The notes: generated by a model from the sequence alone, not told the origin. DNA of 64,000 nt from an uncultured Bacteroidales bacterium (GCA_900318275.1 ONJY01000009.1:7445-71444), one strand, 5' to 3'; positions 12,337 to 29,598 are shown, counted from the first letter of the stretch. A program made the numbers and translations.

Positions 12337-12496
12337 AAAAAACAAACTTTTTTTCGCCATATAAATAAATATTATTATCTTTGCACATTCAAACTTGACA
12401 CGCACAAAAGGCGTGCAACTATTGAAAAACTACGCGTAGTGAACTAAAAAACAAGCCATTGTGGCAATAAACAGAAGACAAAAAACCACATCGCAG

Positions 12497-13504: not shown

Positions 13505-13569
13505 ATATAATTAATAGCGAAACATTTTTAAGGAAATCACGTTATAGAACAAAATAAAAAAACGACAAT

Positions 13570-14940
13570 ATGAAGAAGCTTTTTATCCTGCTCGCCGCCT
13601 CCACCGCCATCATCATGGCCGGTTGCGGCTCGTCAAACAAAGGTGAACTGGTCGGTGTCAACGACCGTCCATACTTTGAGGACATTGACCTGAAAGGCAT
13701 GGTCTTCATCAACCAAGGCAACTACACAATGGGTGCTGGTGTGCAGAACGTCACCTACGGCGACGCTACGACGACACAACCCCGTAAGATGCAGATTGGT
13801 TCGTTCTTCATGGACGAAACAGAGATCACCAACAACGAATACCGCCAGTTTGTGGCTGCTGTCCGCGACTCTGTGGCACGCCGCATGCTCGGTGAGGCCG
13901 GCATAGAGGGATTTCTGGTTGAAGAGGATGCCTATGGCGAACCCATAGATCCTCCCATCTTGAACAAGAAGGCCAAAATAGACTTCAAAGACGCCGATGT
14001 CCGCCAGGCTTTGATTGACGGTGGCTACTATATTATCGACATTAACCATCGCCGCGTCATGGATGTATCCAAACTTAACTATGAATACTATTATATAGAT
14101 TACGACAACATCTCCAAGAAGGAGAACGGCGTTACTACCAAAAACGAGCATCGCGGCACATCGTTTGCTGTGCGCCCCAAAGGCCTCAACAGTCGCTCGA
14201 ACCAGATACAGCGCGAGTACATAAACATCTATCCCGATACTCTTTGCTGGGTGCATGACTATGCTTACAGCATGAACGAAGACTTCACCCGCAGTTATTT
14301 CTCGTCGCCTGCCTATGACAACTATCCTGTGGTAGGCGTGAGCTGGCGTCAGGCAAAAGCCTTCTGCGTGTGGCGCAGCAACATGCTGAACCAGTATCTG
14401 GAGAGCATTGACTACTCACAGCTCAACGACTTCCGTCTGCCCACCGAGAGCGAATGGGAGTTTGCCGCCCGTGGTGGCATCGCCAGCCAGAGTTATCCCT
14501 GGGGTGGTCCTTATGTGCGTAACCCGAATGGATGCTTCCTCGCCAACTATGAGCCTCTGAAAGGCGCTTATGACGACGACGGTGGCGTGAAGACTCTTAT
14601 GGTCGGCCACTATGCTCCTAACGACTACGGCCTGTACGATATGGCTGGAAACGTGAGCGAATGGTGCCTTGATGCATTCAATGAGTCAACCTATCAGGTC
14701 GCTAACGCCCAGACCCCCTACTACAACTACAACGCCAAAGACGACGACCCGCTGGCAATGAAACGTAAAGTGGTTCGCGGTGGCAGCTGGAAAGACCAGA
14801 AATACTTCATTCAGGTCCAGACCCGCACCTATGAGTTCATGGACACCGCCAAGTGCTACATCGGTTTCCGCTGCGTGCAGCCTTACCTGGGTCGTGTGAA
14901 GGGTGACAACCTGCGTACTGCTAGCAACGTGGCAAGATAA
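13570..14940 (+). CDS. porK: T9SS ring lipoprotein PorK/GldK (FGE-sulfatase/SUMF1-like fold)
   Basis: Lipobox IMAGC. Motifs YPVVGVSWRQAKAFCVWRS and VVRGGSW. Gene order also fits. Confidence 0.92.
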   Translation: MKKLFILLAASTAIIMAGCGSSNKGELVGVNDRPYFEDIDLKGMVFINQGNYTMGAGVQNVTYGDATTTQPRKMQIGSFFMDETEITNNEYRQFVAAVRDSVARRMLGEAGIEGFLVEEDAYGEPIDPPILNKKAKIDFKDADVRQALIDGGYYIIDINHRRVMDVSKLNYEYYYIDYDNISKKENGVTTKNEHRGTSFAVRPKGLNSRSNQIQREYINIYPDTLCWVHDYAYSMNEDFTRSYFSSPAYDNYPVVGVSWRQAKAFCVWRSNMLNQYLESIDYSQLNDFRLPTESEWEFAARGGIASQSYPWGGPYVRNPNGCFLANYEPLKGAYDDDGGVKTLMVGHYAPNDYGLYDMAGNVSEWCLDAFNESTYQVANAQTPYYNYNAKDDDPLAMKRKVVRGGSWKDQKYFIQVQTRTYEFMDTAKCYIGFRCVQPYLGRVKGDNLRTASNVAR

Positions 14941-15008
14941 CAATTCGCTTCTACAATAATAATAGGAACACATTATATATAATAAGCAAACACAAAAAAA
15001 TAACCATT

Positions 15009-15869
15009 ATGAGCTTCATAGACAATCTCGTTCGCAGTAAAGCGTATAAGAACTTCATGGCCAAGCTGTATGGCTGGGGCGCAGCAGTCGTTATCGTCGG
15101 TGCTTTGTTCAAGATTATGCACTGGCCCGGCGCAAATATCATGCTTATTGCCGGTATGGGTACTGAGACCATCATCTTCTTCCTGTCGGCCTTCGAACCG
15201 CCTCACAAAGAGTGGGACTGGAGCCTTGTTTATCCCGAACTCGCTGGCATGGCTGAAGAGGCAATGCTGGAGCCTGAGCTCGACGAGAACGGCAACCCGA
15301 TAGAAGTCCTGCCCGAGAGCAAAGACCCGCTGTCGGCAAAACTTGACAAGATGCTTGCTGACGCAAACATCAGTCCCGAACTCATGGATCGACTTGGTCA
15401 AGGCATGCAGAACCTGGCAGAGAGCGCCAACTCAATGAACAACATGGCCAATGTGACAGCTGCCACCGACAAGTTTGTCAACAATATGGACGGCGTTGCC
15501 GGTCAGGCAGGCAAGTTGCTTGAAAGCATGCAGGGCGCCCCTGAGGCTATTTCCACACTCTCCGCCATATACCGCGAAACTGCCGAATCGCTCGGCGGTG
15601 AAGTAAGCTACGTGGAAGAGATGAAGAAAATGTCGGCTAGTTTGAGCAGTATCAACGCCATGTACGAGATGCAGATCAACAACGCTTCGGCTCAGATGAA
15701 CCTTAACAAAGAGTTCGAAGAGAAGATGGCTACGATGCTTTCCAACTTCAGCGACAGTGCCGAAGGTATCACCAAATACAAAGAACAGGTTGACGCCCTC
15801 ACTCGCAAGGTTGCGGAACTCAACAATGTATATGGCAATATGCTTGCCGCTATGCAAACCCGCTTGTAA
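15009..15869 (+). CDS. porL: T9SS motor protein PorL/GldL
   Basis: Two N-terminal TM helices (GWGAAVVIVGALFKIMHWPGANIMLIAGMGTETIIFFLSAFEPP) characteristic of GldL. Confidence 0.9.
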   Translation: MSFIDNLVRSKAYKNFMAKLYGWGAAVVIVGALFKIMHWPGANIMLIAGMGTETIIFFLSAFEPPHKEWDWSLVYPELAGMAEEAMLEPELDENGNPIEVLPESKDPLSAKLDKMLADANISPELMDRLGQGMQNLAESANSMNNMANVTAATDKFVNNMDGVAGQAGKLLESMQGAPEAISTLSAIYRETAESLGGEVSYVEEMKKMSASLSSINAMYEMQINNASAQMNLNKEFEEKMATMLSNFSDSAEGITKYKEQVDALTRKVAELNNVYGNMLAAMQTRL

Positions 15870-15922
15870 TCGACCATACGTCTAACCGAACCTCTTATAA
15901 TAACTAAAGAAAGGAATAGACA

Positions 15923-17596
15923 ATGGGTGCAACAAACTGTCCGGAAACCCCGAGACAAAAGATGATTACAATGATGTACCTCGTGTACACCGCCATGTTG
16001 GCCTTGAACGTGTCGGCAGAGGTTGTGGAAGGTTTCAGGTCTGTAGGTTCCGCAATGACCAACTCAAACATAAACCTTCAGACCAAGCTGGACGACACCT
16101 ATGCCAACTTTGACATAGCGTTAGAGAACAGCCGCGACAAAGTGCAGGAGAGTTACGACAAGGCCCAGAAAGTGCGCGGTTTATCCAACGAGCTGAAGGA
16201 ATATATAGACAGTCTTGAATACGAGTTTATTGGTATGGTGTGTCCCGATGTAGCAAAGATTCACACTGATCCTGACAACCCCAAAATTACGATAGACGTC
16301 AACCTAAAGAATGCCGATGGCACCACAAACCTTGACAGTGTGAGAAGAGCCCTTCAGCTGGGCGGTTTTGCGTGGATGGAGAAAGGCCTGGACGACACTC
16401 ATGGTGCTCCTAACTTCTTCCTTGACGGCTCCACGGAGAATGGTACTGGTCAGGCCTATGACCTTCACAAAAAGATATCTGAATATGTGGCAACAGTGAA
16501 GGACATTCTTGGCGATGACTCGGTCAACGTGAAGTTCCCGTTCGATGTCGACAAGACTTTCCTTGACAAAGAGAACAAGACCGTCAACTGGGAGACGAAG
16601 AATTTCAGTGAAGTTGTCGCCGGTGCCGGTCTTGTGACCTTGACCCGTATGAAAGCCGAGACGATGAACGCCGAATTTGACGCTGTCAACATGCTGTACA
16701 AGCAGGTCAGCAAAGGCGACTTCTCCTTCGACCAGATTGCCCTTATTTCGAGGCCTAAATCCACATACATTATCCGTGGCGGTGTCTATGAAACAGACAT
16801 TAACGTGGCTGCCTATGACTCTCGCCAGAAATTCAATGCAACAGTCAACGGACAACAGTTAGTCAGTAACGACAGCGGTTCTGTACACTACCGTACAGTA
16901 TGTAACAGCGTGGGTCAGCAAAAAGTGAATGTCACCGCATACGTCACAAGTCCGGACGGCGGTACAAAGGAATATACATACACCGACAATTACTTTGTTG
17001 CAGAGCCCGTGGGTGTCATTTCGCTCGACAACATGCAGGTGATGTACTCCGGCATTGAGAACCCCCTGACAGCATCGGTGCCCGGTGTAGACGGTCGCAA
17101 CGTAGAAGTGTCCATTATAGAAGGACAGGGCAAACTGAACAAAGTTGAGGGCAACGGCAAGTATATGATTACACCTGCCAACGGCTGCAAGAAGATAGTT
17201 CTCGCTGTCGATGCCGCCATTGAGAAAGGCAAGAAGACACGCATGAACACCCTTACCTTCAAGGTGAAACCAATTCCCGCACCTGAAATTACCGTTGCCG
17301 GATTCAAAAATGGCGCCAAAGTGTCTCGCAAGAGCCTGACTTCAGGTGTCACTGTTACCGCACGAGCCCAGGAGGGTTTCGAATTCAAGATTCCCAAAGG
17401 ATCTATCCGCGTGATGAGCTTGGAGGTGTTCGTCGGCAACAAGCCGTTTAACTTCAACGGAAGCACATTTGAGCCCGACGGTCTGTCAGCCATCAGAAAT
17501 GCCAACCGCGGTGACAATATTTACATTACCGCCAAGGTAATGATGCCCGATGGCGTTCCTCAGAATGCCAACTGCGTACTCACGATTACAAAATAA
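15923..17596 (+). CDS. porM: T9SS motor/shaft protein PorM/GldM
   Basis: N-terminal anchor KMITMMYLVYTAMLALNVS, typical of GldM. 557 aa. Gene order also fits. Confidence 0.9.
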   Translation: MGATNCPETPRQKMITMMYLVYTAMLALNVSAEVVEGFRSVGSAMTNSNINLQTKLDDTYANFDIALENSRDKVQESYDKAQKVRGLSNELKEYIDSLEYEFIGMVCPDVAKIHTDPDNPKITIDVNLKNADGTTNLDSVRRALQLGGFAWMEKGLDDTHGAPNFFLDGSTENGTGQAYDLHKKISEYVATVKDILGDDSVNVKFPFDVDKTFLDKENKTVNWETKNFSEVVAGAGLVTLTRMKAETMNAEFDAVNMLYKQVSKGDFSFDQIALISRPKSTYIIRGGVYETDINVAAYDSRQKFNATVNGQQLVSNDSGSVHYRTVCNSVGQQKVNVTAYVTSPDGGTKEYTYTDNYFVAEPVGVISLDNMQVMYSGIENPLTASVPGVDGRNVEVSIIEGQGKLNKVEGNGKYMITPANGCKKIVLAVDAAIEKGKKTRMNTLTFKVKPIPAPEITVAGFKNGAKVSRKSLTSGVTVTARAQEGFEFKIPKGSIRVMSLEVFVGNKPFNFNGSTFEPDGLSAIRNANRGDNIYITAKVMMPDGVPQNANCVLTITK

Positions 17597-17611
17597 CAAA
17601 TAGATATTGCT

Positions 17612-18490
17612 ATGAAAAAGGTTTTGTTTAGCATCTTCGCCATTGCCGCCTTTGCTTTTGCCGGCAATGCACAAAGCGTTATCGACGCTGAAGAAGGTCA
17701 CAACCCCAATGACTTCTACCAGCAAGGTATTGTCGTTGGAAAGAAAGCCATGCCATACCCATTCCTCAGAGAGAGCGACGTGGTATGGAAGACTACCATC
17801 TGGCGCCAGATAGACTTCAACGAGAGCTTCAACCAGTTCTTCTATTTCCCTTTTGAGCAGGAGAAGAACACCCAGGGCAGAATAAACCTTGTCAACCTCA
17901 TTGTCAACGCTGCCTCGAACGGTGAATTCGATGTGTACGAGAATGACGACATGAAAGTGCCGCAAGAATGGGCGAAAGCCTACGCCTTCCTTCAGGGCAA
18001 GCAGCTCCGTACAAGACAAGGCGAGGAAGACGAGTTTGGTGACATCGAGGAATTCATAGACACAATTCCCGAAGACTTTGACCCTGCCACTGCCAAGATG
18101 GTTCAGCTCAAAGAGTACTGGTATATCGACAAACAGGACACACGTCAGAAAGTACGCATTGTCGCAATGTCGTTCAAGTTCTCGAAGAACGTGCTCCGTG
18201 CCGGACAATCGGAAGAAGTCTCTGACTGGACATTCTGGGTGCCTATGGATGACATGCGTGTACGTCAGGTTCTCGTTAATGCCAATGCATTTGACGAGAA
18301 CAACGATGTCGCCGAACGCTCTTACGATGATGTCTTCATCCAGCGATACTTCGACAGTTACGTTACTCGCGAGTCAAACAAGTTCAACCGCAAAATCGTC
18401 GACTACCTCACAGGCGAAGATGCCATGCTTGAATCGCAGCTGATTGAGGAACGTATCTATGATATTGAAAACGACATGTGGGAATACTAA
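17612..18490 (+). CDS. porN: T9SS ring protein PorN/GldN (copy 1)
   Basis: Signal peptide, PYPFLRESDVVW motif, C-terminus DMWEY. Last gene of the porKLMN order. Confidence 0.9.
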   Translation: MKKVLFSIFAIAAFAFAGNAQSVIDAEEGHNPNDFYQQGIVVGKKAMPYPFLRESDVVWKTTIWRQIDFNESFNQFFYFPFEQEKNTQGRINLVNLIVNAASNGEFDVYENDDMKVPQEWAKAYAFLQGKQLRTRQGEEDEFGDIEEFIDTIPEDFDPATAKMVQLKEYWYIDKQDTRQKVRIVAMSFKFSKNVLRAGQSEEVSDWTFWVPMDDMRVRQVLVNANAFDENNDVAERSYDDVFIQRYFDSYVTRESNKFNRKIVDYLTGEDAMLESQLIEERIYDIENDMWEY

Positions 18491-18522
18491 AACATTTGTG
18501 ACAGACAATTAAGGCATAACTG

Positions 18523-18560
18523 AAAGAGAGTTAAGAGCAAAAAGTCTCTTAACTCTCTTT
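18523..18560 (+). other. perfect 15-bp stem-loop between the two porN paralogues
   Basis: AAAGAGAGTTAAGAG (18523-18537) pairs with CTCTTAACTCTCTTT (18546-18560) around an 8-nt loop. No clean T-run follows, so this could be a terminator, attenuator or processing site. Confidence 0.7.
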
Positions 18561-18573
18561 CTTAACAAAGGGA

Positions 18574-19440
18574 ATGAGGAAAGCGGCATTAATAATGTTA
18601 TTTCTGACACCGCTGTGCTCAATTGCGCAAGAGGTGACAAGGACGCCAAATGAGATATATACAGAGTCATTGGTGGCTGGACAGACTTATACGCCCTACC
18701 CTTTCCTGAGAGAGAGCGATGTCGTGTGGTCAACCATGATATGGAAGACCATAGATTTAAACGAAGACTTCAACCAGTATATCTACTTCCCGATAGAAGA
18801 GAACGACCGGAGCGGTAAAATAAGCCTCGCCTATGTCCTATGGAATGCTGTTGCGTCCAACGAAATACCAATCTTCGAGGATGACGAACTAAAGATACCA
18901 GTTGACAACTTAGCATTTGTTGAGAAATACACAAAAGCCGACACTATAATGCTCGAAATCGGCTACGACGATGATGACAACGAACTATACCAAACAATAA
19001 TACAACCCAATGACTTTGATGGCGCAGAAATATTCAGATACGCCATCCGAGAAGTCTGGTTTATCGGCAAACAAGACACCCGGCAGGATTCGCGACGAAT
19101 GGCTCTGGCGCCGCTAAAAGAGATGAAGGTCAAATTCGGCGATACCGAAGAATTAATCAACCTTGGAATCCAGCCGATATTCTGGATACCAATGCAGAAT
19201 CCTGCTGTTCGCACAGTTTTAGCAAAAAACAATTCAAATTTTGATGAACTGAATGCCGTTGGACAACCATCATGGGACAACATTTTTGTTACGCAATTGT
19301 ATAGCGCCTATATAACAAAAGAAAGCAATAAATATAACCGAACCATAAGCAAATACCTGACAGGAGAAGACGCTTTGCATGAAGCAGAAGCGATTGAAGA
19401 ACGAATTTTCGACATAGGTAGTGATATGTGGGAGTACTAA
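18574..19440 (+). CDS. PorN/GldN paralogue (copy 2)
   Basis: Shares PYPFLRESDVVW, GKQDTRQ, YLTGEDA and the terminal DMWEY with copy 1. Clearly AT-richer codons. Confidence 0.85.
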   Translation: MRKAALIMLFLTPLCSIAQEVTRTPNEIYTESLVAGQTYTPYPFLRESDVVWSTMIWKTIDLNEDFNQYIYFPIEENDRSGKISLAYVLWNAVASNEIPIFEDDELKIPVDNLAFVEKYTKADTIMLEIGYDDDDNELYQTIIQPNDFDGAEIFRYAIREVWFIGKQDTRQDSRRMALAPLKEMKVKFGDTEELINLGIQPIFWIPMQNPAVRTVLAKNNSNFDELNAVGQPSWDNIFVTQLYSAYITKESNKYNRTISKYLTGEDALHEAEAIEERIFDIGSDMWEY

Positions 19441-22089
19441 ATGAACTTAACAATGGCAAAAAGCACGGACAACGATTCTCCATTAATGAAACAACATGCG
19501 GAACTAAAGAAAAAGTTCCCAGACGCAATACTGTTATTCAGAGTTGGCGACTTCTACGAGACATTTGGAGAAGATGCACGAACAGCCTCCCAGATTTTAG
19601 GACTTACTCTCACACGTAAAGCTGCCGGACATGGTACTTACTGCGACTTGGCAGGAATACCCCATCATGCTGTTGAGCAATACCTTCCACGTCTTGTACG
19701 TGCAGGACTTCGCGTAGCAATATGTGAACAACTTGAGGACCCCAAGACGACAAAGGGGCTTGTAAAACGAGGAATTACAGAACTCGTCACGCCAGGAATC
19801 GCCTACAATGATATGGTGCTCGAAGTCAAAGAGAACAATTTCCTGTGTGGCCTACATCTAACAGATAAAATACACGGAATAAGTTTTCTTGATGTATCCA
19901 CGGGAGAGTTCTACATAGCCGAAGGTGATTTAAAATATATCGATAAACTTCTGACAGATTTCCATCCGGCAGAAGTGGTGTTGCAACGAAAGAAAATGCA
20001 TTGGTTTAAAGAACAGTTTGCAGAAAAATACTATTGCAACACCTTTGACGATTGGGTATTTGCTCCCGATTTTGCCAACGAGTTGCTATTGAAACAATTT
20101 GGAACGAATTCCCTAAAGGGGTTTGGTGTGGAAGACCTTGAGATGGGGATAATAGCTGCCGGAGCAGTTCTGTATTACCTACAAGATACGCAACACACCC
20201 AAACCGCCAATATAACTCGTATCAATAGAGTCGAACAGGACAAATATGTTTGGTTGGATCGTTTCACCATTCGCAATCTTGAGATAATCGGTTCTCATAA
20301 TGACAATGCAAGAACTCTTCTTGATGTCCTTGACCAAACGCTCACTCCCATGGGTTCCCGCCTCATGCGCAGGTGGATCCTTATGCCGTTAAAAGAGGTT
20401 GAGCCAATTGAAGAACGCCTGCATGTCGTAGACACCCTTATCCGTGACGCAGAAACAAGACAGAAACTTGCTCAAAACATCAAGACAATTGGTGATCTAG
20501 AGCGCCTTATAACCAAAGCTGCTGTTGGCCGTATAAATCCACGCGAGATGCAACAACTAAAACGTTCGCTACTCGCTGTCGGACAGGTACAATCCATCTG
20601 CAAAGAAAGCAAATCAGATCCACTAACACAACTAAGCGAGAGAATTAATCCTTGCAAACTTCTTGCCGAAAGGATTGAACGCGAGATTACGGAAGAGCCG
20701 CCTGCCAAGATTGAAAAAGGCGACGTAATCGCCAATGGTGTCAATCAAGAGCTGGACGAACTGCGCTCTCTGGCTGGCTCAGGCAAAGATTACCTGATGA
20801 GCCTGCAGCAGAAAGAAAGCGAAGCGACAGGAATACCTTCATTGCGAATTGGGTTCAACAATATCTTCGGATATTATTTCGAAGTATACAACACTCATAA
20901 AGCCAAGGTCCCTCCCGAATGGATTAGAAAGCAAACTCTAACCAACGCCGAACGTTATATAACACCCGAATTAAAAGAATACGAAGACAAGATTCTCGGT
21001 GCCGAAGAGAAGATACAATCTCTGGAAATTGAATTGTTCAACAAACTTATCTACACGATTACAGAGTATGTACACACAATCCAATATGACGCACAGATTA
21101 TAGCACAGATAGACTGCCTCCTGAGCTTTGCCGAGTTATCCCTAAAAAACAATTATTGTCGCCCATCCATTAATACAGGCGGTATAATTGACATAAAAGA
21201 GGGCAGGCATCCGGTCATAGAGACCCAGATGACACCCGGCAACGAATATATAAGCAATGACATATTTCTCGACAAAGACACTCAGCAGATAATCATTGTG
21301 ACGGGCCCGAATATGTCCGGTAAATCAGCTTTGCTGCGCCAAACCGCCCTAATTGTATTAATGGCACAAATGGGCTGTTATTGTCCGGCGAAAAGCGCAG
21401 AGATAGGCATTGTAGACAAAATTTTCACACGTGTAGGCGCAAGCGACAATATCAGTAGTGGGGAATCGACATTCATGGTTGAGATGAACGAAACTGCAAG
21501 CATTCTCAACAACATAACCGATAGAAGCCTCGTACTACTGGACGAGATTGGACGCGGAACATCCACTTACGACGGCATTTCCATAGCATGGGCTATAACG
21601 GAATATCTGCACAACAATAAATCGGTTCGCCCCAAAGTGCTGTTTGCCACCCATTATCACGAACTCATCGAGATGGCGGATCAGTATGAACGAATCAAGA
21701 ACTATCACGTCAGCGTAAAAGAGATCGACGGTCGAATCATATTTTTGAGGAAGCTCATGCCAGGCGGCAGCGAACACAGTTTCGGTATCCACGTGGCCAA
21801 AATCGCAGGCATGCCGCCATCTGTCGTGAACCGCGCCAACTCAATGCTGCAAGTGCTGGAGGCCAAAAATGAACGTACAATTTCAGATGGCGAGAAAAAC
21901 ACCAAAAAAACAAAAAAAGCCGAAACAAAAGACAATTTTGACGGCCTCCAACTTAGTTTCATACAACTTGACGATCCAACTTTGCTCGAAATACGTGGCA
22001 AATTATTAGATATTGATATAGACACACTTACTCCAATAGAGGCATTGCTAAAACTAAACGAAATCAAAAAAATTGTAACAAAGAATTAA
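19441..22089 (+). CDS. mutS: DNA mismatch repair protein MutS
   Basis: Motifs TPLMKQH-like start, FRVGDFYETFGEDA, Walker A GPNMSGKS, DEIGRGTSTYDG. The ATG directly abuts the upstream TAA. Confidence 0.95.
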   Translation: MNLTMAKSTDNDSPLMKQHAELKKKFPDAILLFRVGDFYETFGEDARTASQILGLTLTRKAAGHGTYCDLAGIPHHAVEQYLPRLVRAGLRVAICEQLEDPKTTKGLVKRGITELVTPGIAYNDMVLEVKENNFLCGLHLTDKIHGISFLDVSTGEFYIAEGDLKYIDKLLTDFHPAEVVLQRKKMHWFKEQFAEKYYCNTFDDWVFAPDFANELLLKQFGTNSLKGFGVEDLEMGIIAAGAVLYYLQDTQHTQTANITRINRVEQDKYVWLDRFTIRNLEIIGSHNDNARTLLDVLDQTLTPMGSRLMRRWILMPLKEVEPIEERLHVVDTLIRDAETRQKLAQNIKTIGDLERLITKAAVGRINPREMQQLKRSLLAVGQVQSICKESKSDPLTQLSERINPCKLLAERIEREITEEPPAKIEKGDVIANGVNQELDELRSLAGSGKDYLMSLQQKESEATGIPSLRIGFNNIFGYYFEVYNTHKAKVPPEWIRKQTLTNAERYITPELKEYEDKILGAEEKIQSLEIELFNKLIYTITEYVHTIQYDAQIIAQIDCLLSFAELSLKNNYCRPSINTGGIIDIKEGRHPVIETQMTPGNEYISNDIFLDKDTQQIIIVTGPNMSGKSALLRQTALIVLMAQMGCYCPAKSAEIGIVDKIFTRVGASDNISSGESTFMVEMNETASILNNITDRSLVLLDEIGRGTSTYDGISIAWAITEYLHNNKSVRPKVLFATHYHELIEMADQYERIKNYHVSVKEIDGRIIFLRKLMPGGSEHSFGIHVAKIAGMPPSVVNRANSMLQVLEAKNERTISDGEKNTKKTKKAETKDNFDGLQLSFIQLDDPTLLEIRGKLLDIDIDTLTPIEALLKLNEIKKIVTKN

Positions 22090-22095
22090 AAAAAT

Positions 22096-22126
22096 TTTGC
22101 CAGTTTCAAAAAAGTATGTACTTTTG
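22096..22126 (+). promoter_or_regulatory. promoter of the six-tRNA cluster: TTTG (22096-22099) N19 TACTTTTG (22119-22126)
   Basis: Exact consensus and near-identical to 7552-7582. The downstream leader CCGCTTTTGAGAGAAAAAG is shared with the minus-strand tRNA-Val unit. Confidence 0.8.
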
Positions 22127-22162: not shown

Positions 22163-22235
<73 letters not shown>

Positions 22236-22262
22236 CAAAAGGCTCCTAAATCAGAGAGAGAA

Positions 22263-22345
22263 GCTCTGGTGGTGGAATGGTAGACACGAGGGACTTAAAA
22301 TCCCTTGCCCGCAAGGGCGTGTGGGTTCAAGTCCCACCCGGAGTA
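22263..22345 (+). tRNA. tRNA-Leu (anticodon TAA), long variable arm
   Basis: Acceptor GCTCTGG/CCGGAGT (with G-U pairs), anticodon loop CTTAAAA, variable arm TGCCCGCAAGGGCG, T-arm GTGGG-TTCAAGT-CCCAC. Confidence 0.85.
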
Positions 22346-22356
22346 CAAATGGCAAT

Positions 22357-22429
<73 letters not shown>

Positions 22430-22543
22430 CCAGAAAAGAGAGTAACTTGAAATGATGTGAGGCAACATCAAAGTCCATGTTCAAAACGCCCTGAAAAAGG
22501 GCCGATGAAGTTGCCAAAAACACAAGCGAGAGAATAAGAAAAT

Positions 22544-22616
22544 GTCTTGGTAGCTCAGCTGGTAGAGCAATTGACTCTTAATCAATGGGTCCAGGGTTCG
22601 AATCCCTGCCAGGACA
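22544..22616 (+). tRNA. tRNA-Lys (anticodon CTT)
   Basis: Acceptor GTCTTGG/CCAGGAC, anticodon stem ATTGA/TCAAT with loop CTCTTAA, T-arm CAGGG-TTCGAAT-CCCTG. Confidence 0.88.
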
Positions 22617-22622
22617 CTATCG

Positions 22623-22696
22623 CGGGGTGTAGCGCAGTTGGCTAGCGCGCCACGTTCGGGACGTGGAGGCCGGAAGTTCGAGTCTTCTCACCCCGA
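22623..22696 (+). tRNA. tRNA-Pro (anticodon CGG)
   Basis: Acceptor CGGGGTG/CACCCCG; anticodon stem CCACG/CGTGG with loop TTCGGGA. Confidence 0.88.
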
Positions 22697-22724
22697 CACA
22701 GCAGTCGCTCGTGTGACCCCAGCC

Positions 22725-22797
<73 letters not shown>

Positions 22798-22810
22798 CAG
22801 AAAAAACTTA

Positions 22811-23551: not shown

Positions 23552-23995
23552 ATGGAAATCATACTCAAACAGGATGTGGCCAACCTCGGCTACAAAGACG
23601 AAATCGTCAACGTTAAGAACGGCTATGCCAACAACTATCTTCTTCCCAAAGGAATGGCCATCATCGCCACTCCCGTCAACAAGAAGATCCACGCCGAGAA
23701 CCTGCGTCAGCGCGCCCACAAGGAGGAAGCCCTCCGCAAGAACGCCGAGACCCAGCAGGCTGCCCTCAACGGCAAGACCGTGAAGCTCATCGTCAAAGTC
23801 GGTGAGAACGGACAACTCTTTGGTGGCATCAACAACATCATGATTGCCGAAGCCCTCAAGGAGCAGCACAACTACGACATCGACCGCAAGCAGATCAGCG
23901 TCGACGCCATCAAGGCCGTTGGCAACTACACCGCCAAGGTCAACGTCTACAAAGAGATCAAAGCCGAACTCAACATCGAGGTCGTCGCCGAATAA
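23552..23995 (+). CDS. rplI: 50S ribosomal protein L9
   Basis: MEIILKQDVANLGYKDEIVNVKNGYANNYLLPKG is a canonical L9 N-terminus. Confidence 0.95.
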   Translation: MEIILKQDVANLGYKDEIVNVKNGYANNYLLPKGMAIIATPVNKKIHAENLRQRAHKEEALRKNAETQQAALNGKTVKLIVKVGENGQLFGGINNIMIAEALKEQHNYDIDRKQISVDAIKAVGNYTAKVNVYKEIKAELNIEVVAE

Positions 23996-24018
23996 CATCG
24001 TTGGTAGACAACAAACGG

Positions 24019-24048
24019 ATACGGGCGCCGCATACGCGGCGCCCGTAT
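24019..24048 (+). terminator. GC-rich hairpin terminator after rplI
   Basis: ATACGGGCGCCG (24019-24030) pairs with CGGCGCCCGTAT (24037-24048). The T-tail is weak (tatgtttc). Confidence 0.7.
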
Positions 24049-24137
24049 TATGTTTCATGCCTGCACCCCACCATTGACAAAGAGCAAGCCTGGCATATAT
24101 CACGAGTGCCTTCAAATCATTTGCCATCTGGCAAAAA

Positions 24138-24168
24138 TTTGCCATTCCAGAAAAAATCCGTATCTTTG
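24138..24168 (+). promoter_or_regulatory. promoter of the AT-rich islet operon: TTTG N19 TATCTTTG
   Basis: TTTG at 24138-24141 and TATCTTTG at 24161-24168, 55 nt upstream of the ATG at 24223. Confidence 0.7.
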
Positions 24169-24222
24169 CAAATCAAATCTTTTTAATCGTAGATGTTCGA
24201 AACAATATACTGATTAAACGCT

Positions 24223-26046
24223 ATGGACAAACAGAAATATAACAACTATCCTCTATCCATTAGTCAGATACTTGGATTGATTGAAGCAAACGACATTGCA
24301 ATACCTGAGATACAACGTCCTTTTGTATGGCGCAAATCGCAAGTACGCGACCTGATGGATTCATTATACAAGGGCTATCCGACTGGATATATCATTATAT
24401 GGAAGAATCCTGCTGTAAAATTAAAGAATGGTACTTTGTCAGAAGGGAAAAAAGTTCTCATTGACGGGCAGCAACGCATCACGGCTCTGATGACGGCCAT
24501 TGCCGGCAAAACCATCGTGTTTGACGACTACAACGAAGGACGGGTAAAAATTGCTTTCGACCCGTTTGCCGCCCTATCAGGCAATCCTGATGCAGAACTT
24601 TTTGCAGTTCAAACACCTGCTCATCTTAAGAGCAAAAGATGGATACCCGATATTGCAGAGTTGTTTAAATCCGACTTTTCGAGTTTCAAATTCATCAACC
24701 AGTATGTGATTGACAACCCAGAAATGGATCAGGAGGAACTGCACAAGATTATCGAAAGTTTAAAAAACCTGCAGCATTGCAATATCGGAGTGATAGAACT
24801 TGATGCCTCGCTTGACATAGACGTTGTTACTGACATTTTTATTCGCATCAATTCCAAAGGTACTGCATTGAGTCAAGGTGACTTTGTAATGTCAAAGATT
24901 GCGGCGGATGAATTGCATGGAGGCAATACACTCCGCAAGGTGATTGATTACTTTGCCCACCTCTGCAAAGACGGTACTTTCTATGGCAAAATCAAGGAGA
25001 AAGACGTTGCTTTTGCCGATTCAGGATATTCAAGCAAGTTGGAATGGTTAAAGGATGACAAGGAAACTGTTTATGATCCAGAATGCGATGACGTTCTACG
25101 TGTGGCCTTTATGCATCGCTGCAAACGCGCCAAGCTTGCCGACCTGGTGGCGATGCTATCTGGCAGAGATTTTGAAACACGCGAGTTTAAAGAAGAAATT
25201 GTAGAATCCACATACAAAGATTTGGAAATAGGCGTGAACAATGTCATCAACGGCTACAATTTTACCCAGTTTATGTTGACCATCCGTTCTGCCGGATTCA
25301 CCTCCAAAAAGCTTGTAAATTCTGTAATGGCTATTGATTTTGCGTATGCTGTATATCTGCTCCTGCAAGAATCAAAAGAGATACCTGTGGATGAAATCAA
25401 GAGTTTGGTGCAACGCTGGTATGTTTTGTCGGTTCTCACTGGCCGATATAGTGCTTCGCCCGAATCATCGTTTGCGAAGGACATTCGCGCAATTGGAGAA
25501 AATGGGGTAAAAGCCGCACTTAAAGCCATTGAAGACGCGACCTTGTCGGATAACTTTTGGGATATACAATTGAACCAGAACTTGACATACGTTTCTTCCA
25601 TCAATCCCACTTATCAAGTATTCCTTGCGGCTCAAAACTTCTTCAAGAAAGATTCTCTTCTTTCTCACATTCCCGTTGGAGAACTTGTAAACTTAGGTGG
25701 CGATATACATCATATCTTCCCCAAGCAATATCTGGTTGACAATGGTTACGACAAACACGAATACAACCAGGTGGCCAACTATGCTTATCTGGACACTCCA
25801 ATCAACATCAAGATTGGGAAGAAAGCACCCATGGTTTATATGAACGAGGCTCTTGACGCCATAAGGAATGCTTCCGACACTTCTTTCAAGTCAATAAAGA
25901 GCGAGGCGGAATTCATCAAAAACCTCCAGGACAACTGTATACCGATCGACATCCTCGAGATGGATTACAGCAATTACAAAGCATTTCTCGAAGCCCGACG
26001 CGTTATGATGACAGAACTCATAAAGACATACTACTATAGTTTGTAA
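24223..26046 (+). CDS. GmrSD-like protein: N-terminal DUF262 (ParB/Srx-like NTPase) plus C-terminal DUF1524-like His-Me finger nuclease; putative type IV restriction enzyme
   Basis: Motifs IPEIQRPFVW and LIDGQQRITAL (DUF262); GGDIHHIFPKQYL...NQVANYAYLDTPIN (HNH/His-Me-like). 607 aa, AT-rich. Confidence 0.8.
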   Translation: MDKQKYNNYPLSISQILGLIEANDIAIPEIQRPFVWRKSQVRDLMDSLYKGYPTGYIIIWKNPAVKLKNGTLSEGKKVLIDGQQRITALMTAIAGKTIVFDDYNEGRVKIAFDPFAALSGNPDAELFAVQTPAHLKSKRWIPDIAELFKSDFSSFKFINQYVIDNPEMDQEELHKIIESLKNLQHCNIGVIELDASLDIDVVTDIFIRINSKGTALSQGDFVMSKIAADELHGGNTLRKVIDYFAHLCKDGTFYGKIKEKDVAFADSGYSSKLEWLKDDKETVYDPECDDVLRVAFMHRCKRAKLADLVAMLSGRDFETREFKEEIVESTYKDLEIGVNNVINGYNFTQFMLTIRSAGFTSKKLVNSVMAIDFAYAVYLLLQESKEIPVDEIKSLVQRWYVLSVLTGRYSASPESSFAKDIRAIGENGVKAALKAIEDATLSDNFWDIQLNQNLTYVSSINPTYQVFLAAQNFFKKDSLLSHIPVGELVNLGGDIHHIFPKQYLVDNGYDKHEYNQVANYAYLDTPINIKIGKKAPMVYMNEALDAIRNASDTSFKSIKSEAEFIKNLQDNCIPIDILEMDYSNYKAFLEARRVMMTELIKTYYYSL

Positions 26047-26060
26047 GCAATACAACCGAT

Positions 26061-27269
26061 ATGTTAGGAGCAATCATAGGCGACATCGTAGGTAGTCGTT
26101 GGGAGTTCAACCCAACCAACGATTACAATTTTGAATTGTTTTCTGACAAAAACAGCTATACAGACGACACAATATGCACTATCGCAGTAGCCGATGCTAT
26201 ATTGCATGGGTCAAATGACTTTGGCCAATATATCCATTCATGGTGTCGACGGTATCCCAATCCTATGGGTGGCTACGGAGGGCGATTTGCACAATGGGTG
26301 ATGAGCGACAATCCTCGACCATATGGCAGTTATGGCAATGGGGCAGCAATGCGTGTAAGTCCTGTGGCATGGGCATCGAACAGCCAAGAAGAAATACTTC
26401 ATGCAGCCAAACTGACTGCATCTTGTACACACAACCACCCCGAAGGAATCAAAGGTGCACAAGCAATCGCGTCGGCCATCCGCAACGCACGGATATTACG
26501 TGAACAATATGGAGGAAAATGGGGAAAAGAGGAAATAAGAGATTTTGTAAGAGAGACTGTCTGGAAATTCCCTGAATATAACATAGATATACAAATAGAA
26601 AAAGTAAAAAACCGTTTCGACGAAACATGTGGAGGAACCGTACCTGTTGCATTATGGGTTATTCAAAATAGCACAGGATTTGAAGATGCTATCCGGCGCG
26701 CAGTAAGTCTTGGAGCCGATGCCGACACCCTTGGCGCTATTGTGGGAAGTATTGCTGAGGCCATCTGGGGTATCCCGGAATGGACAAAAAATAAAGCCAT
26801 AACGTATCTCCCCGAAGACATGAAAAGTGTAGTTAGGGAATTTCACAACCGAACAAAAAACAACAAACCGCAATCCGCCATCATCTATGGCGTAGAATAT
26901 CCAAATCCTGATACGGTAGATTGGGTGCCGGAGGTCGTTCCATCATTAACATTAAAGGAGCAACAATACAAAACATTTGTCCGAGGTTACACGCCCGACT
27001 GGGAGTGCCGATATGCTCCTTACCGATTCAAGGATTGGCTATACATCACCCGTTCGGGATTTTGGTTAAAGAAATTCTGTTTTGAGAGGTGCGATGATGG
27101 CTTATATCATCTATCCAAGCTATATACAGTAAAGGATATGGCCGGGAAAGACCTCATCAAAACGGTTCTGATAGAAGGGTATTTTAAGCCACAGATATAT
27201 GGGTGGCAATACAATACGACAAATGTGGAAACATTGGGGAAGAGAGTGGATGTGGATGGGGAAGAATAA
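26061..27269 (+). CDS. ADP-ribosylglycohydrolase (ARH/DraG fold) fused to an unassigned ~110-aa C-terminal domain
   Basis: Motifs MLGAIIGDIVGS, SYTDDT, YGNGAAMRVSP and SLGADADTLGAIVGSIAEA, so the metal-ligand motifs are intact. Residues ~290-402 match nothing I recognise. Confidence 0.8.
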   Translation: MLGAIIGDIVGSRWEFNPTNDYNFELFSDKNSYTDDTICTIAVADAILHGSNDFGQYIHSWCRRYPNPMGGYGGRFAQWVMSDNPRPYGSYGNGAAMRVSPVAWASNSQEEILHAAKLTASCTHNHPEGIKGAQAIASAIRNARILREQYGGKWGKEEIRDFVRETVWKFPEYNIDIQIEKVKNRFDETCGGTVPVALWVIQNSTGFEDAIRRAVSLGADADTLGAIVGSIAEAIWGIPEWTKNKAITYLPEDMKSVVREFHNRTKNNKPQSAIIYGVEYPNPDTVDWVPEVVPSLTLKEQQYKTFVRGYTPDWECRYAPYRFKDWLYITRSGFWLKKFCFERCDDGLYHLSKLYTVKDMAGKDLIKTVLIEGYFKPQIYGWQYNTTNVETLGKRVDVDGEE

Positions 27270-27289
27270 TTGAATGTAGATGATGCCGC

Positions 27290-27322
27290 CTTGTGGCCGT
27301 TTACTAGCCGTCTTGTAGCCGT
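27290..27322. repeat. tandem array of three 11-nt units (CTTGTGGCCGT, TTACTAGCCGT, CTTGTAGCCGT)
   Basis: Read directly. Same TAGCCGT word family as 12-44. Confidence 0.75.
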
Positions 27323-27665
27323 TCCGGTGGTGGCGGGAGTGCCGGAGAAAATCGCGACAGATGGCCTCGATGAGTAGTGTCATTGGGCTCTTGACACCAC
27401 ATTTTCGGCCTTGAAGTTGGCCATTTTGCCACAAAAGCCACCTCAATTGAGGTATGAGCGGAGATATCCGAAACCAAACAAGTGAGCTCCGAGGAGGGCT
27501 AAAGCGACGGGGAGAGGTGTGTTATTGACTTTTTATGGCCTTTTAGAGGAGGATTTGGATGCTTTATGTACCGTTTCCGAGAGTTAAACTCTTGGATGCC
27601 GAGGGTTTGGTGATTTCGTACCTCATTGGCTGATTGCGTTTTAGATAATAATTAGTATGTGGTTG

Positions 27666-27814
27666 AGCGTTCCGTTCCAGTTGTTCCAGTTGTTTTTTAA
27701 GGGGTACCACTTTTCCAACTCTCTTTATATATTATTAATTATTAATTAGTTATAATATAAAATAAGGGAATGGGTATACCTTATTTTTAATTGGAACAAT
27801 TGGAACGGAACGCT
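27666..27814. repeat. inverted-array element: 26-27-nt arms built from TTCCAGTTG / CAATTGGAA 9-mers around a ~96-nt AT-rich core
   Basis: Left arm AGCGTTCCGTTCCAGTTGTTCCAGTTG (27666-27692). Right arm AATTGGAACAATTGGAACGGAACGCT (27789-27814). Complementary except for 2 positions. Confidence 0.85.
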
Positions 27815-27954
27815 GTATTGTTTTTTTTCTGAGACTTTTTCTCTATGAAGCTGGTTATAACGGCGAATTGAGCGAATTATACGAAACCACGCAGGACAAT
27901 TACGGGCGAATTACTTGAATTGTCGGCAGTTTGGCGCAAAATGCAAGTTTTACT

Positions 27955-27988
27955 GTTTCTGACGTACTAAAGTTTCTGAAGTACTAAA
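27955..27988. repeat. 17-nt tandem duplication (GTTTCTGACGTACTAAA / GTTTCTGAAGTACTAAA)
   Basis: Read directly; 16/17 identical. Confidence 0.85.
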
Positions 27989-28008
27989 CCAAAAGCAAGA
28001 AACAAAAT

Positions 28009-28039
28009 TTTGCCAGTTTAAGAAAAAAGTGTAATTTTG
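28009..28039 (+). promoter_or_regulatory. promoter of the C10 peptidase gene: TTTG N19 TAATTTTG
   Basis: TTTGCCAGTTTAAGAAAAAAGTGTAATTTTGCAC. Shares the TTTGCCAGTTT...AAAAAAGTGT context with the tRNA promoters. Confidence 0.75.
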
Positions 28040-28071: not shown

Positions 28072-29598
28072 ATGCATATTATGAAAAAGTCATTTTTCGT
28101 CCTAACAGCCTTGACGCTAATATTTTCCGTCAATGTGTCGTTTGCCCGCAACGTGTCGGTTGACGAAGCCAAAACAGCGGCGATGCGCTTCATGAACGCC
28201 GCCGGAAGCGGCATGAAGGCGGAGTTGTCCGACATCAATCTGACACACCAGATCATCAACCCCGAGCTCAATATCCCCGCATGCTATTTCTTCAATGTCT
28301 CCGACTGGGGCTGGGTCATAGTGTCTGCCAGCACAACCATGGACCCCATCATCGGTTACAACGACCGCGGCCACAACCTCGACATCGAACGCGCCCCCGA
28401 AAGCATGATGTGGTGGGTGGAGAGTTTTGCCGGTCTTATCAGCGCCAAGCAGGTTGAGGATGCAGCCAACCCTATCGAAGATGAGAAATCATGGATAGAG
28501 CTTCTTGACGGAAACATATCAGAAGACAATGGCCCCAAGGCGCAGCATATTCTCTCTTATGACGAGTGGGACCAAGGCGATGACAACGGAACAACCTACA
28601 ACATGCTATGCCCTACATACCAAGGAGTCCATACTGTTACCGGATGCGTAGCCACCGCACTCTCACAGATTATGCACTATTATCAGTTTCCCATCACCGG
28701 ACAAAATTATCGTTCCTATTTCTGGTGCAATCCTGATCTTGGAATGTCAAGCCCGGGTGTCGCTATGCGCATGAACTTTGACACCGTGCGTTTCAACTAT
28801 TCTGCCATGCCCAATAAAATAGTTGGTTCCACGACAACCGCAGACCGTCTCGAAGTATCACGTCTATGCTATGCTGTCGGCGTGGCCATGAAGATGGATT
28901 ATGGTACATCGGCCTCCGGTGGTAGCGGTGCGCAGTCGGCCCTTGTTCCATCTACCATGCACTCTTTCTTCAAATACAACACTTGCTCTCAAATTGTACG
29001 TGCAAACGTTGGTGACGCTTCGTTCATGTCTCAGATTCGCAACGACTTAAAGCTCAATCGCCTCATCTATATGTCTGGCGCATCGCAGAACCATGTCGGC
29101 AATGACGACCGCCACGCTTGGGTATGCGCTGGTTACAAAGACAGTACCGGCACCACAACGTTCAAGCAGTACTATATGAACTGGGGCTGGGAGGGCAGCG
29201 GCAACGGCTGGTTCAACCTCCACGACAACACCGCTAACGGTATGCGTATCCCCTACCTGGGCTACACGTTCACCAACGAGCAGACTGCCATGATAGGCCT
29301 CATACCGCCGCATCCGGACTCGTCAAGTGTCGACTTCTGGGACCACCTGTCGATTGCCGACGTCGACAACACCGAGCTCCGCGCCGCCTTCCCGAACCCC
29401 GCCACGCACAGCGTCACCATCCCCTACTCCATCAAGAACGCTGATGTCCTGGCCATATACAACATCAAGGGCGAGCTTGTAGAGCAGGTGGCTCTGCAGC
29501 CGGGTGACAGACAGGTTGAAATCAATACCGACCGCATGCCTGCCGGCATCTATATCTATCGCATCGGAGGCGCCACCTCAAAGTTCGTCGTCCGCTAA
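28072..29598 (+). CDS. C10-family (streptopain-like) cysteine peptidase with T9SS C-terminal sorting domain
   Basis: Signal peptide; catalytic Cys context TGCVATALSQIMHYY; His context HAWVCAGY. CTD: FPNPATHSVTI...MPAGIYIYRIGGATSKFVV. Alternative ATG at 28081. Confidence 0.85.
   Translation: MHIMKKSFFVLTALTLIFSVNVSFARNVSVDEAKTAAMRFMNAAGSGMKAELSDINLTHQIINPELNIPACYFFNVSDWGWVIVSASTTMDPIIGYNDRGHNLDIERAPESMMWWVESFAGLISAKQVEDAANPIEDEKSWIELLDGNISEDNGPKAQHILSYDEWDQGDDNGTTYNMLCPTYQGVHTVTGCVATALSQIMHYYQFPITGQNYRSYFWCNPDLGMSSPGVAMRMNFDTVRFNYSAMPNKIVGSTTTADRLEVSRLCYAVGVAMKMDYGTSASGGSGAQSALVPSTMHSFFKYNTCSQIVRANVGDASFMSQIRNDLKLNRLIYMSGASQNHVGNDDRHAWVCAGYKDSTGTTTFKQYYMNWGWEGSGNGWFNLHDNTANGMRIPYLGYTFTNEQTAMIGLIPPHPDSSSVDFWDHLSIADVDNTELRAAFPNPATHSVTIPYSIKNADVLAIYNIKGELVEQVALQPGDRQVEINTDRMPAGIYIYRIGGATSKFVVR

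Follow-up and report, generated by a model that had tools for sequence, protein, structure and literature searches.

Host systems directed against viral ADP-ribosylation, referred to as 'ARG-centric', have been proposed by computational prediction (Iyer et al. 2022, Viruses 14:1977, PMC9503650). Their parts include an ADP-ribosylglycohydrolase (ARH) without a transferase, Nudix and WYL regulators, phosphatases, vWA/TY chaperones, restriction-fold nucleases and HIRAN, Macro and NADAR domains, and they are reported from actinobacteria, planctomycetes and proteobacteria (PMC9503650). Here we analyse a stretch of 64,000 nucleotides from an uncultured Bacteroidales bacterium (GCA_900318275.1 ONJY01000009.1:7445-71444; the whole stretch is termed the window), in which a strain-variable islet behind the ribosomal protein gene rplI carries two open reading frames (ORFs) on the + strand, separated by 14 nt. 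ORF1 (24223-26046, 607 aa) encodes a BrxU/GmrSD-like candidate type IV (modification-dependent) restriction enzyme, assigned using Pfam, PADLOC and the PDB, and ORF2 (26061-27269, 402 aa) was identified by ORF calling and Pfam as an ARH fused to an unnamed C-terminal domain, here called C-dom. The two-gene defence module proposed earlier for this DNA is partly supported: the pairing of these genes is real, recurrent and very probably co-transcribed, yet optional, the nuclease being independent.

The islet resembles the ARG-centric systems in having an ARH without a coupled transferase or sirtuin, in its variable, tightly coupled nuclease (a GmrSD-like gene here, and GmrSD or McrBC genes beside 10 of 44 ARH relatives), and in that relatives of ORF2 or C-dom occur with Nudix/NrtR, WYL, vWA, HIRAN, Macro and NADAR. 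It differs in that a Nudix/WYL repressor and a phosphatase are absent from 24059-27971, no phosphatase being seen among the listed neighbour families of the ARH relatives, in that the partners are type IV enzymes (GmrSD-like, McrBC), and in that the ARH carries a domain unnamed in the published prediction (PMC9503650). On the reading favoured below, ORF2 would represent a variant of these predicted systems in Bacteroidales. No paper in the literature searched combines an ADP-ribosylglycohydrolase with GmrSD or BrxU, the one that does so with McrBC being unrelated, and the ORF2 architecture, C-dom and the recurrent adjacency of ARH and type IV genes in Bacteroidales were likewise not found there. 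The statement of an earlier note on this DNA, that it knows of no named defence system with this composition, agrees with that search, but the idea has a partial precedent in the prediction by Iyer et al. 2022 (PMC9503650) of ARH-centred host systems that lack a cognate transferase and are coupled to nucleases.

ORF1 is like BrxU, GmrSD and SspE with respect to its N-terminal DUF262 domain with DGQQR, its long helical middle and its C-terminal H..P/N..N motif, and its length is close to that of BrxU (607 versus 587 aa). As for BrxU and GmrSD, it is located in a defence hotspot and is a single gene in most genomes. Its similarity to BrxU is, however, restricted to the N-terminal domain, with a sub-threshold DUF1524 profile score, and, unlike the situation with BrxU and GmrSD, an ARH fusion gene follows ORF1 here and in two other lineages. 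The combination in ORF2 of an ADP-ribosylhydrolase with an extra domain is reminiscent of DarTG, DarT-NADAR, Tre1-Tri1 and DraT-DraG, in which Macro, NADAR or ARH hydrolases neutralise ADP-ribosylation; DarG, for example, joins its hydrolase to a C-terminal partner-binding domain. In contrast with these systems, the islet is without an adjacent transferase gene, and ORF2 scores far below both relevant NCBIfam equivalog cut-offs (DraG, TIGR02662, 56.9 versus 337; Tri1, NF041672, 41.3 versus 490). A further likeness is to the small proteins associated with prokaryotic Argonautes (pAgo), because stand-alone C-dom occurs 10-13 nt downstream of Piwi genes in three of five contexts, whereas in the window C-dom is fused to an ARH with no pAgo nearby, and C-dom has no Pfam family. 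To our knowledge, C-dom lies outside the known classes of pAgo partner (SIR2, TIR, nucleases, membrane proteins).

The strain-variable cargo behind rplI

Contigs encoding exactly the same RplI protein were compared over the region from rplI to the same C10 peptidase gene, revealing four alleles. The first is the ORF1-ORF2 pair (L009, L013, L014, L016, L018); the second encodes a 430-aa protein with a faint EVE match and a Bro-N protein, on the opposite strand (L010); the third encodes a 347-aa DUF262-HNH protein and an EcoRI-type methylase (L011); the fourth has no cargo (L012, L015). Homology to L010, L011, L012 and L015 by blastn ends at 23995-24058, with the break relative to the empty L012 allele at ~24058, and returns at 27972-28004, such that the cargo extends over 24059-27971 (no strand assigned). 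Because empty and alternative alleles exist among strains with the same RplI, this rumen Bacteroidales species has acquired the segment horizontally, as a defence cargo that varies between strains; the earlier note had proposed as much in calling it an acquired islet. Each of the three kinds of cargo resembles a restriction or modification-reading function, and the site is a small defence hotspot. The alternative cargos (L010 8602-11760 and L011 8598-10985) are all opposite in strand to that of the window.

The AT-rich character of the islet, judged by eye in the earlier note, is borne out by computation. The cargo has 42.9% GC compared with 54.9% for the window (z = -2.2), no segment of equal size being lower, and is the most deviant segment of the window in tetranucleotide use; GC at third codon positions (GC3) is 75-85% in the flanking rpsF, rplI and thrS, but 41-47% in ORF1 and ORF2. 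Low GC was nevertheless rejected as sufficient proof of acquisition, since mutS (19441-22089; 43.7% GC, GC3 44%) and the gld genes, which are core in all related contigs compared, are equally GC-poor. With core mutS and gld nearly as deviant, composition is weak evidence for acquisition in this genome. The core genes for GldL, GldM, two copies of GldN and MutS (12000-22089) have 43-50% GC, and this region ranks second in the window in tetranucleotide deviation.

On its left side the core DNA ends with the rplI intrinsic terminator hairpin (24019-24048, + strand), a perfect 13-nt inverted repeat also detected in a terminator scan, which follows the rplI stop codon and has a perfect stem of 13-14 bp. 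The earlier note had placed this terminator, both ORFs and the 14-nt gap exactly. A Bacteroidetes-type promoter, TTTG-N19-TATCTTTG (24138-24168, + strand), which reads TTTGCCATTCCAGAAAAAATCCGTATCTTTG, serves both ORFs; its earlier assignment is substantiated by a motif count, TTTG-N17-22-TAnnTTTG occurring 14 times in the window versus 0.58 expected, with every match upstream of a gene. DNA in common with loci of other species starts at 24134 (L019) and 24139 (L072). The scan of the window for the promoter motif found none between or inside ORF1 and ORF2, and the terminator scan found no terminator-like site between them. Given the single promoter, the 14-nt gap and the lack of a terminator between the ORFs, the simplest reading is that ORF1 and ORF2 are very probably co-transcribed, in agreement with the operonic coupling previously suggested. 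ORF1 and ORF2 are the only genes of the cargo; its gene content includes no methyltransferase or integrase, as the earlier note had stated, and no ADP-ribosyltransferase gene.

The two proteins and the recurrence of their pairing

ORF1 is BrxU/GmrSD-like, with a solid DUF262 assignment and a probable His-Me nuclease domain. The DUF262/ParB-like NTPase domain (residues 15-226; 24265-24900, + strand) is matched by Pfam GmrSD_N/DUF262 with E 2.5e-33 (116 bits versus a cut-off of 33), contains the motifs IPEIQRPFVW (residues 27-36) and DGQQR (within residues 79-89), and aligns with bona fide GmrSD proteins with an hhalign probability of 96.5%. The top PADLOC model for ORF1 is HEC-05 (E 1.3e-28), equated with BrxU by its authors (bioRxiv 10.1101/2024.01.29.577857), and the sole PDB sequence match is BrxU (7p9k, E 2e-9), over the N-terminal domain only. 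The putative His-Me finger (DUF1524-like) motif (25696-25827, + strand) was assigned by motif conservation and comprises GGDIHHIFPKQYL (residues 492-504), NQVANYAYLD (515-524) and INIKIGKK (527-534); the pattern HHIFP...N..N is invariant in 16 ORF1 relatives and is kept in a 51%-identical fragment in another lineage (L170). The isolated C-terminus is sub-threshold with Pfam GmrSD_C (15.3 bits versus a cut-off of 23, E 0.02), and hhalign of the C-terminus only, in which DIHHIFP is aligned with IEHIFP from bona fide GmrSD_C proteins, is non-significant (E 0.014, probability 3%). Full-length hhalign of ORF1 matched the N-terminal domain alone, and a PDB sequence search with the C-terminus gave only noise. 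Thus, of the GmrSD/BrxU architecture originally assigned, the DUF262 part stands on the Pfam, HEC-05 and 7p9k matches, whereas the DUF1524 part is not reached by profile. An AlphaFold2 (AF2) model of ORF1 from 16 close homologues was unusable (pLDDT 40) because diverse homologues are lacking, the list for alignment holding only sequences of at least 83% identity. Purifying selection on ORF1 is strong, with 94% identity at the protein versus 84% at the nucleotide level and 38% of third positions changed.

The ARH domain of ORF2 (26061-26825, + strand) is matched by Pfam PF03747 (ADP_ribosyl_GH) over residues 1-239 with E 2.1e-34 (120 bits versus a cut-off of 26.2) and by PDB entries for ARH enzymes (2cwc, ARH3, DraG). 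The motifs GDxxGxxxE (residues 7-15), TDDT (34-37), TH (123-124) and DADT (220-223) are all present, TDDT and DADT aligning to those of Thermus thermophilus ARH (2cwc), and the catalytic and metal-binding residues, i.e. E15, T34-D35-D36-T37, T123-H124 and D220/D222/T223, are conserved in the subfamily consensus. Judged by these intact motifs, ORF2 is predicted to be a catalytically competent ADP-ribosylhydrolase; the identification of an ARH with intact metal-ligand motifs followed by an unassigned domain was correct. The ARH domain is 65-70% identical over ~265 aa to thousands of Bacteroidia proteins, a subfamily with varied C-terminal extensions and total lengths of 260-590 aa. Variants of ORF2 with 404 aa have one additional VD repeat at the C-terminus. 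A phage origin of the cargo was considered and rejected, IMG/VR containing no relative of ORF1 and one weak locus each for ORF2 and C-dom. The sole relative of ORF2 in the viral collection (L168 6001-6882, IMG/VR UViG_2561511222_000002) is 57% identical over the ARH domain, and its contig probably represents prophage DNA within the genome of an isolate.

C-dom (ORF2 residues ~285-381; 26913-27203, + strand), delineated by HMMER, AF2 and fusions, is a domain of ~95 aa with an alpha-beta4-alpha arrangement and has zero Pfam matches even at E <= 10. When 1.84 billion representative proteins were scanned exhaustively with HMMER, C-dom was present in 66 clusters only, either as a stand-alone protein (~120-160 aa) or fused to other domains. 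The fusions are with ARH (P0005, P0247, P0268, P0279), Macro (P0263, E 2.5e-49), NADAR (P0262, P0265, ~1e-46), AbiGi (P0252), a LlaJI-type (McrC-like) restriction nuclease (P0276), DUF1643 (P0274) and Zn-ribbon-like repeats. Because C-dom is fused to three unrelated hydrolase folds, i.e. ARH, Macro and NADAR, it appears functionally tied to ADP-ribose removal. Of the five stand-alone contexts examined, three, on unrelated contigs, have C-dom (121-129 aa) 10-13 nt after a long Piwi/pAgo gene: L086 (7001-7384), beside BREX genes; L089 (7001-7366), beside SNF2/PLD, SMC, Dnd-associated, GmrSD_N and Cas1/2 genes; and L173 (2304-2687). In L172 (2733-3122) it lies 3 nt after a Type ISP restriction-modification (R-M) enzyme, and the fifth context (L088) is uninformative. 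In its stand-alone form, C-dom may act as a small, hitherto undescribed partner protein in pAgo and R-M systems.

The conserved residues of C-dom are W288, P312, D313, R317, Y328, R331, S332, G333, K338, D346 and H350, of which D313, R317, R331, S332, K338, D346 and H350 form a polar set, and the domain is mildly acidic (median pI 5.9). These properties argue for recognition of a ligand or a protein rather than of generic nucleic acid, and C-dom probably selects the target, be it a protein or an ADP-ribosylated ligand. The AF2 model (pLDDT 82, core >90) has a helix, a four-strand meander and a second helix; fold searches of the PDB and BFVD returned nothing at E <= 0.001, the best TM-scores being ~0.3-0.4. 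The topology resembles that of the TY chaperones of PMC9503650, although this is only an impression. The possibility that C-dom is a mini ADP-ribosyltransferase, raised by its R-S-E-like residues, was rejected on account of its insufficient size, its four-strand meander and the absence of a conserved catalytic Glu.

Viewed from ORF1, the pairing is rare. Very many relatives, 83-94% identical, are present in rumen and gut metagenomes. Among 78 metagenome loci with ORF1 relatives (49-100% identical), 63 were informative, i.e. contained the entire 3' end and 400 bp or more of the DNA beyond it, and an adjacent ARH gene was found in one of these, the window's own allele, and not in the other 62; one further locus has an ARH gene ~3.5 kb upstream. 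In L072 a relative of 94% identity stands alone, and the DNA in common with the window (24139-26034) has the promoter and the stop codon of ORF1 as its exact limits. ORF1 thus travels as a single-gene cassette with its own promoter, and this wide circulation argues that it is functionally autonomous; most likely it is self-sufficient and does not need ORF2. Genes for AAA_15 and AAA_14 proteins adjoin some ORF1 relatives, including one of 85% identity at another chromosomal site, where it comes after an AAA_15 gene and a 203-aa gene. In the loci concerned (L077-L084), the ORF1 homologue starts 50 nt after the gene for the AAA_15 ATPase (384-447 aa) and the Pfam-less 203-aa gene, and the arrangement, which sits between truA and exbB, may be another stacked defence system. 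In a nucleotide tree of 57 ORF1 members, the ARH-linked genes fall within one 8-member clade, in which the ARH-less L072, L091, L092 and L105 are equally close; since this clade is mixed, ARH linkage is restricted to one small branch, in which it has been acquired or lost.

Viewed from ORF2, the pairing is more frequent, albeit in a small sample. The exact architecture of ORF2 occurs in five lineages only, three of which (the window, L019 and L170) have it following an ORF1-family gene. L019 derives from another species and another context, yet has the same 14-nt spacer, with 94% protein identity in ORF1 and 78% in the ARH; the DNA in common with the window spans 24134-27112. In L170 an ARH-C-dom protein of 65% identity is encoded 3 nt after a fragment that is 51% identical to ORF1 residues 496-607. 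The other two lineages have no ORF1-family gene in this position: in L171 the gene follows one for a T1RH-like_C+Peptidase_S24 protein, and in L085 it lies in a long array near WYL and RtcB genes. In the latter locus (L085 1-9503), the 500-aa ORF2 relative ends a same-strand array of ten mostly unannotated genes, which include those for DUF6794 and HI_0787_N (PF27257) proteins, and next to it are RtcB and a divergent WYL/WCX regulator; some ARH relatives likewise have PF27257 as their C-terminus. Third-position divergence between the window and L019 is similar in ORF1 (0.38) and the ARH domain (0.40), on which basis the pair appears to have been co-inherited; it is 0.55 in the C-terminal part of ORF2. 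Protein identity falls from 94% in ORF1 to 82% in the ARH domain and 71% in the C-terminal part, and ORF2, its C-terminal domain above all, evolves much faster than ORF1. The claim of a two-gene module therefore stands in part, the pair recurring in L019 and L170 and ARH/type IV adjacency being above chance (see below), but 62 of 63 ORF1 loci lacking an ARH.

The wider ARH subfamily was surveyed using one genome per species, with genes called in 44 loci with ~8-kb flanks. Immediate ARH neighbours are heterogeneous but rich in conflict-type families: upstream these are HIRAN (3), McrBC (2), Nudix/NrtR (2), GmrSD_N (1), HNH, WYL and SAM lyase, and downstream Nudix (5), GmrSD_N (4, of which 3 with GmrSD_C) and AAA_14/DUF4143 (2), together with C5 methylase, SIR2, an AlkZ-related protein, a helicase and AAA_5. 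GmrSD-type or McrBC genes are beside the ARH in ~10 of the 44 loci, all co-directional, with GmrSD-type genes in L019, L024, L046, L047, L050 and L068, and McrBC in L029, L041, L051 and L032. Gene order varies: the ARH precedes GmrSD in L046, L047 and L050; L024 has ARH, a DUF262-DUF7834 protein and GmrSD; L068 has a GmrSD pair and then an ARH remnant; L029 and L041 have McrB, McrC and ARH with gaps of 5-11 nt; L032 has one gene intervening between McrC and ARH; and L051 has ARH followed by McrB and McrC. In loci that contain a type IV gene, this gene is at most two genes from the ARH in 9 of 10 cases (P ~3e-4 for random placement within the locus; ~7e-4 without the syntenic L050), and DUF262-type PADLOC models match 5-6 of 149 proximal neighbours, with none among the listed matches of 140 distal control genes. 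The association of ARH with type IV restriction is real but partial, involving about a fifth to a quarter of loci; with respect to the ARH-DUF262/DUF1524 neighbourhood check suggested in the earlier note, ~10 of 44 relatives are beside GmrSD or McrBC, but most have different neighbours, among them Nudix, HIRAN, WYL and SIR2.

Candidate functions of the pair

The reading that we tentatively favour is that ORF1 is an autonomous restriction enzyme and ORF2 an optional accessory, with the task of undoing ADP-ribosylation by an invader. One promoter would transcribe both genes of the acquired cargo. ORF1, through its DUF262 NTPase domain and probable His-Me nuclease, would restrict modified phage DNA on its own, whereas ORF2 would strip ADP-ribose that the ADP-ribosyltransferase of a phage or competitor has placed on host components. 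C-dom would pick the target, possibly the restriction machinery itself, and ORF2 would so preserve the function of defences directed at nucleic acids, forming an additional, second layer and not an on/off partner of the nuclease. Of this proposal, the polymorphism of the hotspot, the identities of the domains, the presence of one promoter, the asymmetry of the synteny and the fusions of domains were observed here; the enzymatic activities, substrates and protective role we infer. Several points weigh against it. Some 34 of 44 ARH relatives are not beside restriction genes; the neighbour sample is of 44-63 loci, mostly from rumen and gut metagenome-assembled genomes, some of which (L047, L050) are phylogenetically non-independent. 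The nuclease domain of ORF1 is confirmed neither by profile (sub-threshold) nor by structure (AF2 pLDDT 40), and the islet is without the Nudix/WYL regulator or phosphatase that are core to the published ARG-centric prediction. With C-dom mildly acidic (median pI 5.9) and without a structural relative, its role as target selector is a guess.

A narrower proposal, which we consider unlikely, is that the ARH-C-dom protein serves specifically as an accessory to defences that target nucleic acids (type IV here; pAgo, Type ISP and McrC-like elsewhere), in which C-dom recognises an ADP-ribosylated target and the hydrolase restores or enables restriction; the target could be a defence nuclease that an ADP-ribosyltransferase of a phage has attacked, or DNA of the invader that carries an ADP-ribosyl or a ribosyl modification. 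Somewhat less unlikely is independent stacking, i.e. that ORF2 is an autonomous immunity or defence gene that has hotspot and transcript in common with ORF1 without any interplay, acting, for example, against interbacterial ADP-ribosylating toxins (as Tri1-like immunity) or against the ADP-ribosylation of host or incoming nucleic acids. Such independence fits with the many unrelated contexts of the ARH relatives (Nudix 7, HIRAN 3, SIR2, WYL, helicases), with the presence of an ARH on a Phocaeicola conjugative transposon (PMC11005914), with the 62 of 63 ORF1 loci without an adjacent ARH, with the weak NCBIfam similarity of ORF2 to Tri1 and DraG, and with the precedent of PARG, shown to be a stand-alone immunity hydrolase against ADP-ribosyltransferase toxins (PMC11833690). 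It accounts less well for the tight, same-direction placement of type IV genes where they are present (9 of 10 within two genes), for the three of five exact-architecture lineages that follow an ORF1-family gene, one of these pairs being deeply diverged, and for the fusion of C-dom itself to a McrC/LlaJI-like nuclease.

That ORF2 acts on nucleic acid, removing an ADP-ribosyl (or related ribosyl or glycosyl) adduct from invading DNA with C-dom as reader, and so unmasking the DNA for the nuclease or repairing host DNA, we regard as distinctly improbable. ARH, Macro and NADAR enzymes, all of which occur with C-dom, are known to act on ADP-ribosylated nucleic acids (PMC11833690), the partners of C-dom (pAgo, Type ISP, a LlaJI-like nuclease, GmrSD) target DNA or RNA, and some ARH relatives have HIRAN-domain neighbours. 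On the other hand, C-dom is not basic (median pI 5.9), fold searches of the PDB and BFVD matched it to no known reader of modified bases, and a literature search for ADP-ribosylated phage DNA found nothing; we know of no such DNA. Still lower in our estimation is an obligate two-gene system, in which the nuclease would be licensed or restrained by ADP-ribosylation, self-imposed or from a phage, and the ARH would reverse this modification. The single promoter, the 14-nt gap, the pairing kept in L019 and L170 and the recurrent adjacency of ARH to type IV genes would all be expected of it, but not the lack of an ARH at 62 of 63 ORF1 loci, nor the ARH-less genes equally close within the ORF1 clade (L072, L091, L092, L105), and the islet has no ADP-ribosyltransferase to impose self-modification. 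A housekeeping role in ADP-ribose or O-acetyl-ADP-ribose metabolism, encoded in AT-rich DNA, is almost certainly wrong, being largely refuted by the presence/absence polymorphism: Nudix genes are frequent and SIR2 occasional beside ARH relatives, and core genes such as mutS are also low in GC, yet ORF2 is absent from conspecific strains, its family has swapped C-terminal domains, and defence genes are more abundant among proximal neighbours than among distal controls.

If ORF2 does aid restriction by removing ADP-ribose, it would represent the first concrete case of a host reversing chemical sabotage of restriction by a phage, and would put on an experimental basis a class of systems that comparative genomics alone has predicted; were the dedicated-accessory proposal true, it would add a 'counter-counter-defence' layer that is new to experiment for any restriction system. 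The most interesting element is C-dom, which connects ADP-ribose hydrolases of three unrelated folds to genes for pAgo, Type ISP and McrC-like proteins and, at ~95 aa, confidently modelled and with a conserved polar cluster, provides a tractable handle. Even if the genes are merely stacked, the locus is a clean, small defence hotspot beside ribosomal protein genes, with four alleles in one species.

Elements flanking the cargo genes

The right side of the cargo contains a 149-bp palindromic element (27666-27814, no strand assigned) with 26-nt arms of GTTCCA units and a conserved AT-rich centre, TATATAT[CT]ATTAATTA[TA]TAATTAGTTATA. It is ~80% identical in the occupied alleles L010 (11566-11712) and L011 (11724-11868) and absent from the empty alleles; it is thus on the peptidase side of every occupied allele, regardless of the cargo. 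In other species it recurs after ARH-GmrSD (L047 11269-11435) and, in part, after ARH-McrBC (L051 12820-12877), and it was not found elsewhere in 1.67 Mb of fetched loci. Conservation extends from the arms to the loop, which points to a site for protein binding or recombination and not to a terminator only. Assignment as a known RNA was rejected, Rfam returning only spurious hairpin matches, as was a role as a general end of ORF1 cassettes, the element being absent from L072, L077 and L091-L167.

Directly after the ORF2 stop codon (27270-27330) is a ~22-bp unit that is single in the window and has extra tandem copies in some alleles (L018 7446-7541, L005 3346-3465, L007 3797-3872). At the right edge of the hotspot, a motif scan identified the promoter of the core C10 peptidase gene (28009-28039, + strand), core homology being back at 27972-28004; the gene itself (28072-29598) encodes a protein with a Por secretion tail. 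On the other side of the hotspot, a cluster of six tRNA genes (22163-22798; Gly-GCC x2, Leu-TAA, Lys-CTT, Pro-CGG, Thr-CGT) lies between mutS and rpsF and has its own consensus promoter at 22096-22126.

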